NCBI RefSeq assembly: GCF_002075285.3
Contig: NZ_CP021983.2
Coordinates: 450,001 to 482,000, forward strand
Source: Halomicronema hongdechloris C2206
Lineage (GTDB): Bacteria; Cyanobacteriota; Cyanobacteriia; Phormidesmidales; Phormidesmidaceae
DNA: 32,000 bases
Direction of reading: 5' to 3'
The notes beneath the pieces are model-generated. The model searched no databases. It was given only the letters and a program-made list of their open reading frames with translations, and was not told where the DNA came from. Position numbers and translations under genes: made by a program. Positions 1 through 7,708 of the stretch are shown piece after piece; the stretch's first letter is position 1; every line of letters starts with the position of its first letter.

Positions 1-1396
1 CATCACTAGCCGTTGCAATTGCCTTACCATCATGGCTAAACTTTATAGCCCAAATAGCATCTTGATGCCCCTGGACGTTAGCAATTAAGGTTCCCGATTT
101 AGTCCACAGGCGCATAACCCCATCATTTCCTCCCGTCACCATTGTCTCCCCATCAGGACTAATATCACTGTCCCAGATGACGTCCTCATGTCCCTTGAGC
201 TCAACGGTCAGATGGCTAGACAAGTCCCACAGTCTAGCCACTGGGTCAAAAGCTGTGACCAACAGAGCTTGACCATTGGGATGAAATACCGCACTACTGA
301 CCAACCTAGAGGAATCGCGTAGCATCGCAATTTCTTTGCCCTCGCGGTTCCATAGCCGCACTGTGGCATCATCCAATGAGCCATCGTCACTAACATCCAT
401 ACTCCAAACCGTACTGGTATGGGCATTAACTTTATTTCTTTCCTGAATGTTGTCAAGAATCGTCTTCAGGACTACCAGAGGCTGCGTTGTGGGATAGTCT
501 TCTAAGGGACGATTATCATCCACTAGGGCCTTTAATTCTAGTCCATTCTCCATGGCACTGAGTAACGCATCTAGGGGAGCCGTTTCAAATTTACTCAGGG
601 CATAATTGCTTTCTCGTTCTAGATAAGTGGCTACCTTGGCCTCTTCGAGTTTTAGGTTGGCTTTCTGTAGCTTACGAGACGCTTGAATCGTCAGGATGCT
701 AACGGCTGTAGCTACACAGAGCGTGACTCCTAGCACAATGGAACCGAAGCGAACCATGTGCTTAGCTCGTTCTCCAGCTGCGACTAACCTACCGTTTGCA
801 GCTTCTACTTCGGCACTCTTGGTGATATAGGTTTGGTGCTGTTGGGTGGGCAGCGGAGTATGGTCTTCCTGCCAGGCTTCTGTTAACCAACGTTCTGCTT
901 CTGCTAAATCGCCCCCTCGCAATAGATAATCATCCTGACGGTGCTTCTTCTCCCACTCCAGAGCACGAACCAATAATCGAGTATGAGCTTTGATATGGAC
1001 TAAATCAGTGTTGAGGGTATTGACCAATGACTGAAAGGCTAACTTGAAGTCATGCTCCTCCTGGAAGAACAGCCAGTTGGTCCTGCTGATAGCTGGATGG
1101 ACCGAAGCCATATCAAACCCTTCCTGGCGCACAATTGGCACCAGTCGCTTATTGTGCTCAATGGCATGATCAATCTCTTGCCGACATACTGTTGAGGCAA
1201 TGGAATGAGGGCTGATGATAAAAATAAAGGTATCTGCAGCTTCAATTCCCGCCTGAATCTCAGCCCACCAATCAGCCGTGAGAGGAATATCTTCCCAGTC
1301 TACCCACGCATCATATTTGCTCTCGACTAGGGCTCGATTGAGAATCTGGACAAATTCCTTATCTTTGCGAGAATAGGAAATAAAAACATCAGTCAT
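1..1396 (-). CDS. TIR domain / single TM helix / WD40-repeat protein; 3' end truncated by the window edge
   Basis: Absent from the ORF track because no stop lies in the window. Hand translation of the minus strand from the ATG at 1396..1394 stays open to position 1. It reads MTDVFISYSRKDKEFVQILNRALVESKYDAWVDWEDIPLTADWW...FIFIISPHSIASTVCRQEIDHAIEHNKRLVPIV, which is TIR-like with a conserved Glu in CRQE. A hydrophobic helix FGSIVLGVTLCVATAVSILTI follows (~nt 686-751). WD40 units come next (..DATVRLW, ..DPVARLWD, GHEDVIWDSDISPDGE, ..DGVMRLW, GHQDAIWAIKFSHDGKAIATASD). Confidence 0.85.
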   Translation of the reverse strand, partial: MTDVFISYSRKDKEFVQILNRALVESKYDAWVDWEDIPLTADWWAEIQAGIEAADTFIFIISPHSIASTVCRQEIDHAIEHNKRLVPIVRQEGFDMASVHPAISRTNWLFFQEEHDFKLAFQSLVNTLNTDLVHIKAHTRLLVRALEWEKKHRQDDYLLRGGDLAEAERWLTEAWQEDHTPLPTQQHQTYITKSAEVEAANGRLVAAGERAKHMVRFGSIVLGVTLCVATAVSILTIQASRKLQKANLKLEEAKVATYLERESNYALSKFETAPLDALLSAMENGLELKALVDDNRPLEDYPTTQPLVVLKTILDNIQERNKVNAHTSTVWSMDVSDDGSLDDATVRLWNREGKEIAMLRDSSRLVSSAVFHPNGQALLVTAFDPVARLWDLSSHLTVELKGHEDVIWDSDISPDGETMVTGGNDGVMRLWTKSGTLIANVQGHQDAIWAIKFSHDGKAIATASD

Positions 1397-1819
1397 CGCT
1401 ACGCATTGCCAGAGCGACTAGGACACCATTGGTTATGCAATGACGCCATTCTTTTCTTAGGAGCATATTCGCCAAACCCTAGTGAGATCTCTTGAACTCG
1501 ACAGTTGTCCTAAAGATTAGCGATACACTGTAGTACGATGAATTCCAGTAATCGGGGCCTGGTTGGCAGTAGACGCTGAATAGATATACATTAGCTAGGT
1601 GCAAGAATCCGGTAAGAAATGGCTGATATTTAACTCGGAACTTGTCTGAGTCCAAATCAAAACTATGACTTACAAGTGTCAGCCTGTGCCCCTCTTAGTA
1701 AGGCGGATTAGGGCTCTTCGCGCAGTGCTTTACCCAATTGAAACTTGCCACGGGAAGCCCAGCGGTCCCAAACGATGGTTTTCAGAGACGGAGCTTTTCC
1801 TATGGCGGCGTGGAGCCTA

Positions 1820-2122
1820 TCATCGCTGCTGTAGAGGCTTCTTTTCTGCCGTGAAGGCTTCCTTCGCCAGCTTAGGGGCTTTGTTTTCTGCGGTGGAGCT
1901 TTCCTTCGCCACCGTGGAGGCTTCGTTTCCTACTGTGAAAGCGTCTTTCGCCAGCTTGGAAGCTTTGTTTGTCACCCTGGAGGCTTCCTTCGCCGTCGTG
2001 GCAGCTTTATTTGCGATCGCAAAACTTTCCTTCACTACCGTGAAAGGTTCCTTCGCCGCCTCGGAGGCTTTGTTTGCGATCGCAGAAGCGTCTTTCACCG
2101 CCGTGAACCAATAGTCCATCAA
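1820..2122 (-). CDS. Small Lys/Ala/Glu/Thr-rich protein made of 11-residue (33-nt) amphipathic repeats (LEA/apolipoprotein-like)
   Basis: ORF track gives 100 aa: ..FTAVKDASAIANKASEAAKEPFTVVKESFAIANKAATTAKEASRVTNKASKLAKDAFTVGNEASTVAKESSTAENKAPKLAKEAFTAEKK. The DNA shows a 33/66-nt periodicity. The antisense ORF (1665..2114 +) is also open but encodes a Phe/Ala/Ser-rich mirror image. The strand choice is a judgement. The listed start is TTG at 2122; an ATG follows at 2119. Confidence 0.4.
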   Translation of the reverse strand: MMDYWFTAVKDASAIANKASEAAKEPFTVVKESFAIANKAATTAKEASRVTNKASKLAKDAFTVGNEASTVAKESSTAENKAPKLAKEAFTAEKKPLQQR

Positions 2123-2378
2123 TGCGGACCTTCAGTGTCATAGACAAAATACTTGGTCAGGCAGCGCCAATGACCCCTCCGTCGACCGTGAGGCTTAGGA
2201 TGGCGGGATGAACTAAGGGTCTGGCGCTGCTGAGAAAGGGTTGCGCTCCTGTTTTGAGGGCAATCCTGCGGTGAAGCTTTGCTCTGGCGGGGTTGACTAA
2301 AGGAATCGCTCTGAATAATGACGATGCATTGACAGACTCTCAGGCAGAGTGCTCTGTGTCCCTGGCGAGGCTTACTCC

Positions 2379-6084: not shown

Positions 6085-6094
6085 TATGCCAAGG

Positions 6095-6194
6095 CAGAAG
6101 TAGGAAGGCAGAAGGCAAAAAGGGAGATCCTGATAAATGCAGCTTTGCCGCTCTAGTCAATCGAGGTGTTATTTCTGCCGCAGAGTACTAGATA
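6095..6194 (+). repeat. Left arm of an ~80-100 bp inverted repeat pair (partner 9634-9735)
   Basis: atcctgataaatgcaGCTTTGCCgctctagtcaATCGAGGTGttatttctgccGcagagtactagata matches the reverse complement of the partner, atcctgataaatgcaATCCTTCTgctctagtcaGTAGCAGTAttatttctgccAcagagtactagata. Identical blocks of 15, 10, 11 and 14 nt are present. Weaker similarity extends about 20 nt further out. Confidence 0.75.
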
Positions 6195-6295
6195 CTGCTC
6201 CTCGGTGATTGAATGCCTGCCTTGCGGCTGACCCAGTTAGCCTTTCAATCCTGAGCTCTGCTGGGCTTTAATAGGAACAACCAGCCTCCAAACCG

Positions 6296-7708
6296 ATGCC
6301 CAAGATTTTCATCTCCTATCGACGCAGCGATAGTGAAGACGTGGCCGGACGCATCTATGACCGGCTGGTGGCCCATTTTGGTCATGACGCTATCTTCAAA
6401 GACGTCGACGACATTCCCTTCGGCGTCGACTTCCGCGACTATTTGAACACCAGCCTGGATCAGTGCCAGGTGGTGCTGGCCGTCATCGGCAAGTCTTGGC
6501 TGATGGCCACCGACGCCAGCGGTAGACGTCGCCTGGATAACCCCGCCGATTGGGTCCGCTTGGAGCTAGAAGAATCCCTGCGTCGCCCGGATGTGCTAGT
6601 GGTGCCGTTGCTGGTGAGCCGAGCCAGCTTACCCAGGGTCGATGAATTGCCTGAGAGCCTGAGAGCATTGCCCTATCGGAATGGGGCACAGGCTCGTCCA
6701 GACCCCGATTTCCATAAAGACATGAATCGGTTGATTGTCGGGCTAGAGCAGTATTTCCAGCAGAGAAATCAACCCACTGCCAACCCATCTTCGCGCCGAG
6801 ACCGGCCCCCTAGGGCGGTTAATCTCCAACCGAAGCGACCGCCTGCCGTTCCCACCTTCTCCTTTGACGTGGTGACGGTTGATGCCCAGGGCAACATCAC
6901 AGAGCGCCGCCAGGCAGAGGCCAATTATCACAGTGAAGACTTGGGTAATGGCATCAAGCTGGACTTGGTGCACATCCCTGGCGGCGAGTTTTTGATGGGG
7001 TCACCTGCGGGTGAGAAAGGTCGAAGTGACGACGAAGGACCTCAACATCGAGTGCAGGTTCCCGAGTTTTGGATGGGCAAGTTTCCCGTCACCCAGGCCC
7101 AATACCAGGCAGTCATGGGGGAGAACTCCAGTCGCTTTTCTGAAAACGGCAGCAATCGCCCAGTGGAGTCGGTATCCTGGCACGATGCGGTGGCTTTCTG
7201 TGAGAAACTCTCGGAGTTAACCAGCCGCGACTATCGGCTGCCGACGGAAGCGGAATGGGAATATGCCTGTCGGGCTGGCACCACCACACCATTTTACTTT
7301 GGGCCGACGATTACGACCGAGTTAGCGAATTACCGAGGAACTGACTTGACGTACGAAGGTAACACTTTTCCAGGTAATTATGGTCAAGGTCCTAAAGGTG
7401 ACTTCCGACAGCAGACGACTGAAGTCGGCAGCTTTCCCGCCAATGCCTTCGGCCTCTACGACATGCACGGCAACGTCTGGGAATGGTGCCAGGATGTCTG
7501 GCACAGCAGCTATGCGGGAGCGCCCAGGGATGGCTCCGCCTGGCTAGAGGGAGGCAATCAAGACCTCCGGCTGCTGCGGGGTGGCTCTTGGGCCTTCCAT
7601 CCCACGTTCTGCCGCGCTGCCTGCCGCTTCCTCCTCTTGCCAGATGGCCGCCTCGACAGCCGCGGGTTTCGGGTGGTGTGGTCTGCCGCCAGGACTTACG
7701 CGTCCTGA
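6296..7708 (+). CDS. TIR domain + FGE-sulfatase (SUMF1-like) domain protein
   Basis: Intact 470-aa ORF. The N-terminus is MPKIFISYRRSDSEDVAGRIYDRLVAHFG...QVVLAVIGKSWL...DWVRLELEESL (TIR_2-like). An Arg/Pro-rich linker follows. The FGE-sulfatase motifs are IPGGEFLMGSP, RLPTEAEWEYACRAGT, MHGNVWEWC and LRGGSW (~6953-7681). Confidence 0.9.
   Translation: MPKIFISYRRSDSEDVAGRIYDRLVAHFGHDAIFKDVDDIPFGVDFRDYLNTSLDQCQVVLAVIGKSWLMATDASGRRRLDNPADWVRLELEESLRRPDVLVVPLLVSRASLPRVDELPESLRALPYRNGAQARPDPDFHKDMNRLIVGLEQYFQQRNQPTANPSSRRDRPPRAVNLQPKRPPAVPTFSFDVVTVDAQGNITERRQAEANYHSEDLGNGIKLDLVHIPGGEFLMGSPAGEKGRSDDEGPQHRVQVPEFWMGKFPVTQAQYQAVMGENSSRFSENGSNRPVESVSWHDAVAFCEKLSELTSRDYRLPTEAEWEYACRAGTTTPFYFGPTITTELANYRGTDLTYEGNTFPGNYGQGPKGDFRQQTTEVGSFPANAFGLYDMHGNVWEWCQDVWHSSYAGAPRDGSAWLEGGNQDLRLLRGGSWAFHPTFCRAACRFLLLPDGRLDSRGFRVVWSAARTYAS

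Follow-up and report, generated by a model that had tools for sequence, protein, structure and literature searches.

When a gene for a TIR protein lies beside a gene for an NTPase switch and both end in the same type of sensor domain, do their products form one receptor divided between two polypeptides, or is each protein a receptor of its own? We addressed this question for three large modular genes, here called A, B and C, that lie within 7.7 kb of a 32-kb stretch of DNA (the window) from Halomicronema hongdechloris C2206. The original prediction, made from the letters of the window, had placed all three genes correctly (Table 1) and proposed that gene B, encoding a STAND NTPase, and gene C, encoding a TIR protein, specify a split TIR–nucleotide-binding (NB)–sensor receptor that is assembled or triggered through the formylglycine-generating enzyme (FGE)-sulfatase domains at both C-termini. 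A Pfam scan confirmed the TIR, WD40, HEAT and FGE-sulfatase assignments. The products of genes B and C are 100% identical to XM38_004490 (P0121) and XM38_004500 (P0001), respectively, of H. hongdechloris C2206. The two genes share their orientation and are separated by 775 bp of repeat-rich spacer, and gene A is divergent from gene B. We think it likely that A, B and C are three independent, self-contained receptor-like genes, of a kind expanded in filamentous cyanobacteria, and not one split system.

Genes B and C in other genomes

We collected 80 loci using residues 1–620 of the gene B product and seven homologues as queries (set A1) against bacterial and archaeal contigs representing one genome per species. 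Hidden Markov models (HMMs) for the TIR, FGE and NACHT modules were then run against all six-frame open reading frames (ORFs) of these loci; the TIR model is not a narrow one, as it also picks up gene A (2e-26). The flanks amounted to 969 kb, up to 10 kb on each side, with at least 5 kb upstream at 48 loci, downstream at 47 and on both sides at 37. A TIR ORF was found in the flanks of none of the loci (0/80), and no gene B relative carries a TIR domain itself. Nor did the 80 loci contain a second FGE gene, the sole extra match being a fragment of a retroelement template repeat at L020. Apart from B and C, no window ORF had a syntenic counterpart in the related loci. Candidates for conserved neighbours of gene B relatives were rejected, as they comprised only antisense shadow ORFs, synteny internal to Nostoc and high-copy families (Uma2, Pkinase, PAS/GAF).

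From the side of gene C, five TIR-FGE homologues on long contigs (50–70% identity) lie in five different contexts, none of which includes a STAND neighbour (0/5). A gene-B-type NACHT was absent from all 80 metagenomic loci of the gene C TIR subfamily (set A3, 456 kb), at least 11 of which are TIR-FGE loci, and from three TIR-FGE loci linked to a diversity-generating retroelement (DGR; L169, L170 and L171). At L170, a 378-residue P-loop protein of the AAA_35/AAA_16 type (1177–2313, minus strand) is encoded divergently upstream of the DGR-targeted TIR-FGE gene; it is the sole case seen of an NTPase beside TIR-FGE, and its family differs from that of the gene B NTPase. Thus, the STAND-FGE/TIR-FGE adjacency, whose conservation across genomes the prediction had put forward as a check, was never seen, either at the gene B loci or at the TIR-FGE loci examined.

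The FGE domains through which the two proteins were proposed to assemble are indeed paralogous, at the family level only. They are 52% identical to each other, while the FGE domain of gene B is 70–72% identical to those of its own orthologues, and that of gene C is 65–72% identical to those of TIR-FGE orthologues and 71.5% identical to that of a caspase-FGE protein of the same genome (P0108). Among matches to the gene C domain, the gene B domain ranks about 130th, so the two domains show no special relation. With at least 8000 matches in the FGE search and 843 in the search with the NACHT part, both genes turned out to be ordinary members of dispersed paralogue families, an outcome that the original prediction had itself considered.

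DGRs adjoin relatives of both genes. A motif scan found DGR-type reverse transcriptases (RTs; IGNLTSQ and YVDDF motifs) directly downstream of gene B orthologues at L020, L022, L034 and L038, in each case followed by a template repeat (TR). The mismatches between the TR and the variable region (VR) of the target fall on template adenines in 10/10, 12/13, 15/18 and 20/23 cases, respectively, and the few others sit at the initiation of mutagenic homing (IMH) end. At another gene B orthologue (L024, 12814–14650), 18/23 mismatches of the intact VR/TR pair are at adenines, the RT is a 116-residue fragment and an ORF (13381–13953) is inserted; this DGR looks like one caught while decaying. Of the 19 NACHT-FGE loci whose downstream sequence extends to 2 kb or more, 5 have a TR. 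In the gene C family, an RT stands after P0077 (L169), and bAvd plus an RT after P0075 (L170/L171), with 15/17 and 13/14 mismatches at adenines, respectively. Every DGR locus found for the two families has a single target (8/8), and the B-type and C-type protein families therefore each function as a unit of their own. Several clusters at 90% identity have many members on few contigs (P0009, 28 members on 3 contigs; P0226, 23; P0100, 54); these TIR-FGE, NACHT-FGE or other FGE proteins show the pattern expected from ongoing DGR hypervariation in populations.

A receptor in which B supplied switch and sensor, and C supplied TIR effector and sensor, would suit the adjacency and shared orientation of the two genes, the catalytic Glu of the TIR domain, the lack of an obvious enzymatic effector in gene B and the P-loop protein beside the TIR-FGE gene at L170; in view of adjacency at none of the other loci, FGE domains without any special relation, single-target DGRs in each family, the lack of TIR in or near every gene B relative and a 775-bp, repeat-filled spacer that contains promoter-like sites, we consider such a receptor highly improbable. 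The proposal fails, in essence, for want of conserved adjacency and because both genes are ordinary members of dispersed families. Had it been true, B and C would together have offered a bacterial counterpart, in two chains, of plant TNL receptors; this is not upheld. Plant TNLs and Avs-type STAND sensors contain the same three module classes as this neighbourhood (TIR, STAND switch and repeat or sensor modules); unlike in those receptors, the modules lie here on separate proteins without conserved association, the NTPase is of the NACHT type and the sensor has a C-type lectin (CLec) fold. Neither a vWA nor a MoxR domain, as found in the VMAP/iSTAND ternary systems (Kaur et al.), was detected in genes A–C or the neighbouring ORFs scanned.

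Architecture of the three proteins

Gene B had been described as a signal/transmembrane (TM)–NB-ARC-like NTPase–HEAT–FGE protein. The TM segments, STAND NTPase, HEAT repeats and FGE domain all stand, and the NB-ARC assignment has to give way to NACHT. The P-loop region (Walker A, GEGGIGKT at residue 183; Walker B, LVIVDH at residue 258) scores below threshold in Pfam for both NACHT (6.4e-5; 23.3 bits against a cut-off of 26.7) and NB-ARC (7.5e-4). The switch is nevertheless a NACHT-clade STAND and not NB-ARC, because it is followed by NCH4 (PF22731), a NACHT-specific C-terminal helical domain (3.1e-17; 62.6 bits against a cut-off of 27), because its orthologues carry PF05729 NACHT and because Foldseek, queried with the AlphaFold2 (AF2) model (predicted local distance difference test, pLDDT, 75.8), ranks NAIP/NLRC4, NOD2 and NLRP3 before CED-4/Apaf-1. 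Compared with the PDB by sequence, the NACHT part gave nothing significant, and the structural comparison alone is informative.

N-terminal to the switch, Pfam and hydropathy scans revealed no recognisable enzymatic effector, only the two hydrophobic segments and, after them, a juxtamembrane module that is conserved (Table 1); the relatives likewise lack enzymatic effectors. The juxtamembrane module occurs in 347 representative clusters, in every case within larger proteins. We considered it as a mobile effector and rejected this idea, as it was found only within larger proteins of the gene B clade. The full architecture is kept at 55–72% identity across Leptolyngbyaceae, Nodosilinea and Thermoleptolyngbya. 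More distant relatives from Nostocales and Oscillatoriales (loci L040–L088; for example, L043 8342–11527 and L071 9068–11590) have no FGE domain and carry long HEAT arrays N-terminal to the TM/juxtamembrane–NACHT–NCH4 module; provided that their single TM segment is real, the membrane would separate the repeats from the NTPase.

NACHT proteins with an FGS sensor of the "antigen-receptor type", probably DGR-diversified, are a described category (Kibby et al.), and a 2026 survey figures STANDs with FGE-sulfatase sensors. Gene B shares with this type of bNACHT the NACHT domain with its NCH helical module, the repeats that follow, a single C-terminal FGS/CLec sensor, DGR-diversified orthologues and a multicellular cyanobacterial host. 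Unlike that type, it has two hydrophobic segments and the juxtamembrane module in place of a recognisable N-terminal enzymatic effector, its own DGR appears to be lost, and anti-phage activity is known for none of the gene B clade.

The TIR domains of genes A and C are both clear in Pfam. In gene A, TIR_2 spans residues 4–124 (E = 1.5e-25) and WD40 repeats start at about residue 321 (1e-20), with a single hydrophobic segment at residues 219–237 between them in the hydropathy scan. Gene C matches TIR_2 at E = 3.7e-12 and has no TM segment by the same scan. Its E90 is part of the sequence DWVRLE, aligned to DWVHKE (E642) of SARM1, and does not vary in gene C family alignments, both of 10 and of 51 homologues; the Glu of the CRQE motif in gene A aligns with it. 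The catalytic Glu, which the prediction had marked as the residue to check, is thus kept in both genes, and this retention suggests that both TIR domains are probably active.

Gene C shares the TIR fold, the W-x-x-x-E catalytic Glu and the N-terminal FISYRR strand motif with TIR NADase effectors such as the SARM1 TIR, Thoeris ThsB and TIR-STING/TIR-SAVED. In contrast to these effectors, its TIR domain is fused to a lectin-fold sensor and has no ThsA, SAVED or STING partner, and an NADase role here would be a prediction from the retained motifs. The window ORFs scanned include no ThsA (SIR2 or Macro-SLOG) effector gene. PADLOC returned only generic TIR matches, with weak matches to ThsB and PADLOC/NCBIfam scores far under the family cut-offs, and nothing for gene B. 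A metagenome scan found the gene C TIR subfamily in many architectures; that of gene C itself is kept at 50–72% identity among homologues.

The FGE-sulfatase match of gene C is strong (E = 3e-60, Pfam), and its best solved relatives are PvdO (1e-38) and TvpA of Treponema denticola (4e-25), a DGR variable protein. The AF2 model of gene C (pLDDT 84.4) superimposes on TvpA with a TM-score of 0.74, normalised to the target, and a root-mean-square deviation of 2.7 Å. Human FGE binds copper through the Cys pair C336 and C341. In the alignment, gene C has Phe at position 336; when this alignment is carried over to GGSWLYVPDCC of gene B, the corresponding residue is Tyr. Of the Cys pair, both domains retain just the Cys341 equivalent. 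With the Cys336 equivalent lost from both copies, neither is a true formylglycine-generating enzyme, and both domains are predicted to be non-enzymatic C-terminal sensor modules. Together with PvdO and TvpA as the best structural relatives, this agrees with the sensor role that had been assigned to them.

Proteins of these kinds are on record. FGE-type DGR targets with Toll-like and NTPase domains form category b of Wu et al., STAND-CLec DGR targets with TIR or peptidase effectors were reported by Dore et al., and FGS, which is always C-terminal, is paired with at least 10 N-terminal domains in cyanobacteria (Kaur et al.). TIR-like and ARM-repeat CLec variable proteins are also described in cyanobacteria. 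The literature therefore bears out the earlier view that these genes form part of the conflict systems of multicellular cyanobacteria; as for the accompanying remark that no characterised system was known with this exact architecture, the architectures are not without precedent, as NACHT-FGS proteins and TIR- or NTPase-fused FGE targets of DGRs are already described. Genes A, B and C are additions to known kinds.

Retroelement traces at genes B and C

The sensor domains of both genes end in what looks like a DGR target site. In an alignment of 51 TIR-FGE proteins, 14–15 positions within residues 433–456 have an entropy above 2.5 bits, compared with a domain mean of 1.1 bits, and these positions interleave with an invariant scaffold (RGGSW, P, CRSA, R, P, R, GFRVV). 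In a syntenic orthologue pair, the identity minimum falls exactly at this variable window. The C-terminal scaffold of B and C is the canonical VR scaffold of CLec-type DGR targets. The same fold and the same RGGSW..C.R..GFRVV scaffold at the extreme C-terminus characterise the DGR variable proteins with an FGE-type CLec fold (TvpA, PDB 2Y3C), which make up category b of Wu et al., including the TLR- and NTPase-fused b7–b11, and the STAND-CLec targets of Dore et al.; close homologues of B and C share with them an RT and a TR with adenine-specific mutagenesis.

The nucleotide sequences of the two VR-equivalents carry the corresponding mark. When compared with heterologous TRs, the gene B region is mismatched at 57–68% of the sites where the TR has adenine and at 20–29% of the other sites; for gene C, the values are 80–86% and 25–34%. 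This excess at adenine sites is significant for the two regions (Fisher p from 1e-3 to 1e-8). NNC codons occupy 8/14 variable positions in gene B (p = 0.03) and 11/14 in gene C (p = 0.002), and IMH-like ends are kept in both genes.

The window itself, unlike the loci of active DGR targets, contains no RT, no Avd and no intact TR; a tblastn search of its 32 kb with three DGR RTs and one Avd gave nothing below E = 0.08, and no RVT Pfam match was found among the window ORFs scanned. Nor does the window hold a cognate TR differing from either VR at adenines only. For each VR, the best second copy in the window is its counterpart in the other gene, which is 60% identical and shows no adenine specificity. 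Among the best 120 RT profile matches, none came from H. hongdechloris.

What remains is a 34-nt segment downstream of gene B that resembles part of the L020 TR (Table 1). The AAC codons in it share the register of the variable positions, and its local alignment score of 22 exceeds those of dinucleotide shuffles of the spacer (mean 10.6, standard deviation 1.2, maximum 16), none of 300 of which reaches 22; control non-coding stretches score 7–12 against the L020 TR. This sequence match points to a fossil of a DGR that formerly stood after gene B and has decayed. A search for a terminator or RNA fold after gene B gave nothing above shuffled sequences (z = −0.67).

Just upstream of the putative remnant lies a palindromic repeat (Table 1). 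The element, about 40 nt long (GTTGGGTCGCGCTGCGCTTGACGCCAACCTAC), is 89–92% conserved between different cyanobacteria, and at L020 it occurs on both sides of the DGR template repeat (4474–4512 and 5109–5144). Either a dispersed repeat or a cis element that accompanies DGRs is conceivable.

Since the DGR beside gene B has decayed to the 34-nt remnant and there is none for gene C in the window, both genes appear to be frozen, or orphan, variable proteins. In this respect they are comparable to all3226 of Nostoc PCC 7120. DGR loss after diversification has been described in cyanobacteria, as have dispersed CLec paralogues that lack an RT and keep remnants of TR homology. The putative TR fossil adds modestly to this record.

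The position of the remnant between B and C raises the question of whether one DGR had served both genes, so that their sensors were diversified together against the same ligand and the cluster is what is left of a two-target element. Multi-target loci with STAND-CLec pairs have been described, and B and C each end in a VR-type sequence with an IMH-like motif and remain similar for about 18 nt past their stop codons. At only 60% identity, however, the two VRs show no adenine spectrum and differ at many scaffold positions and in the GC-rich, IMH-proximal 3′ end; therefore, they do not descend recently from one TR, and we rejected a TR common to B and C on account of the scaffold mismatches. The remnant also aligns better with the TRs of NACHT-family DGRs, and the DGR loci of the two families are single-target throughout. 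We consider a two-target DGR unlikely.

Surroundings and role of the cluster

The features of the three genes and of the B–C spacer are collected in Table 1.

Table 1 Features of genes A, B and C and of the B–C spacer (window coordinates; aa, residues of the product)
Feature	Position	Strand	Basis or details
Gene A, TIR-TM-WD40, truncated by the window edge	1–1396	minus	Translation, Pfam and hydropathy
Gene A, WD40 repeats	2–436	minus	Pfam
Gene A, TM segment	686–742	minus	Hydropathy scan
Gene A, TIR domain	1025–1387	minus	Pfam
Gene B (XM38_004490), membrane-anchored NACHT-NCH4-HEAT-FGE(CLec), 985 aa	2564–5521	plus	Pfam, AF2, Foldseek
Gene B, N-terminal membrane part: signal/TM1 (aa 8–26), Pro/Ser/Thr-rich linker, TM2 (aa 66–84)	2585–2815	plus	Hydropathy scan; AF2 helices 5–22 and 53–84
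Gene B, juxtamembrane pre-NACHT module (aa 85–175), conserved, many invariant residues	2816–3088	plus	Invariant alignment columns
Gene B, NACHT NTPase module through NCH4	3089–4225	plus	Walker A 3110–3133, Walker B 3335–3352, NCH4 4091–4225
Gene B, HEAT repeats	4262–4528	plus	HEAT_2 27.1 bits, borderline; orthologues with PF13646; alphaRep/HEAT structural matches
Gene B, FGE-sulfatase/CLec-fold domain, predicted non-catalytic	4748–5491	plus	PF03781 5.4e-52, aa 729–976; PvdO and TvpA structural matches
Gene B, VR-equivalent (RGGSW...GFRVV)	5390–5494	plus	VR listing; IMH-like CCTGGAC just downstream
Dispersed palindromic repeat, upstream of the putative TR remnant	5559–5598	plus	92.5% over 40 nt to L020 4474–4512, just upstream of the L020 TR
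Putative DGR template-repeat remnant (fossil TR), 82 nt past the gene B stop codon	5603–5636	plus	28/34 bases equal to L020 TR positions 44–77
MITE-like short repeats in the B–C spacer	5850–6200		Pair 5850–5922/6012–6084; arm 6118–6200 pairs with 9628–9710
Gene C (XM38_004500), TIR-FGE(CLec), 470 aa	6296–7708	plus	Pfam, AF2, Foldseek
Gene C, TIR domain	6305–6679	plus	
Gene C, catalytic Glu E90	6563–6565	plus	
Gene C, FGE domain	6962–7681	plus	
Gene C, VR-equivalent	7577–7681	plus	Family entropy peak, aa 433–456

The spacer between B and C is filled with repeats resembling miniature inverted-repeat transposable elements (MITEs), which is consistent with local rearrangement. One of them forms an 83-nt inverted repeat (6118–6200/9628–9710, 81% complementary) that brackets gene C, two Crp-like genes and a low-GC stretch (0.41–0.45 at 8–10 kb); the two arms could be MITE copies, or else mark where an inserted segment ends. 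The two Crp-like genes, arranged in tandem on the minus strand (7819–8391 and 8431–9021), encode Crp-family regulators (HTH_Crp_2). At L008, a TIR-FGE homologue has, about 3 kb upstream, a Crp-like gene with 43–44% identity to these, and a relaxase and an IS66 transposase are encoded on the same contig. We rejected the Crp-like regulators as a conserved partner of TIR-FGE, as L008 was the one other locus to have them. In the divergent intergenic region between A and B, a tandem array (1834–2114) consists of about six copies of a 42-nt unit, 61–74% identical to the reference copy; it lies within the ORFs 1665–2114 (plus) and 1820–2122 (minus), and one strand reads as a repetitive S/F/A-rich ORF.

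Farther along the window, 10123–20954 holds metal-uptake genes and no classical defence island. These include a Mn/Zn-type ABC transporter (permease, ATPase and binding protein; 10123–12969), assigned by reading the ORF translations, as well as HupE/UreJ, a TonB-dependent receptor (15447–18452) and FecCD. After a second NACHT ORF (21943–22911, plus strand; PF05729 3.5e-10; P-loop GGPCSGKT) comes a further ORF that overlaps it in a different frame (22763–23758, plus strand) and has no Pfam match; 21943–23758 may be a frameshifted or split NLR-like gene.

This context, with metal transporters, Crp regulators and Ycf66 nearby, together with the meagre PADLOC result, could be taken to mean that the genes have no immune role and are signalling or regulatory, their lectin-fold sensors binding endogenous or environmental ligands, and such "regulatory pathway tuning" has been argued in the cyanobacterial DGR literature. 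On the other side, a NACHT switch and TIR domains whose catalytic Glu is intact are hallmarks of immune or death pathways, and the same architectures are classed as conflict systems, which makes a purely regulatory, non-antiviral function quite unlikely. This alternative concerns the biological role rather than the architecture and is compatible with three independent receptors.

As independent receptors, the proteins might work as follows. Gene B would be an antigen-receptor-type bacterial NACHT, related to NLRs, consisting of a membrane anchor, the juxtamembrane module, the NACHT–NCH4 switch, HEAT repeats and an FGE/CLec ligand-binding domain, and gene C would be a sensor-effector in one protein, with a TIR domain carrying the catalytic Glu fused to a lectin-fold sensor. 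A ligand would bind the variable lectin surface and activate each protein separately. In gene B, binding would release NTP-dependent oligomerisation of the NACHT module at the membrane, and the output may run via the TM/juxtamembrane module; in gene C, ligand-driven clustering would bring TIR domains together and lead to NAD+ cleavage or a signal. That A, B and C stand side by side would then reflect the clustering of conflict genes and local rearrangement, as suggested by the MITE-like repeats and the DGR loss, and not an obligate partnership.

Several considerations weigh against three unconnected receptors of this kind. Uniform random placement would not easily put a TIR gene on each side of a NACHT gene within 7.7 kb, and comparative genomics alone may be compatible with a functional link specific to this lineage. 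The output step of gene B is a guess, since no enzymatic effector can be recognised in it. The H. hongdechloris genome may also have, outside the window, a DGR that acts on B or C in trans. One could accordingly suppose that the cluster is a lineage-specific unit, in which an effector-less NACHT-lectin receptor signals via the neighbouring TIR-FGE and TIR-TM-WD40 proteins, or that the TM/juxtamembrane module serves a bacterial NLR diversified by DGRs as a novel membrane effector; we hold these possibilities to be very unlikely.

We therefore favour three separate receptor-like genes, of which B and C place two effector classes, a NACHT switch and a TIR domain, side by side on the same DGR-type hypervariable lectin sensor, one of them with a putative retroelement fossil. 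The pair lends support to a published view in which cyanobacteria diversify receptors and, once these are selected, "freeze" them. The effector-less TM-NACHT-HEAT-FGE family, found widely in Leptolyngbyaceae and targeted by a DGR at about one quarter of the loci examined, is a reasonable subject for studying how bacterial NLRs signal at membranes.

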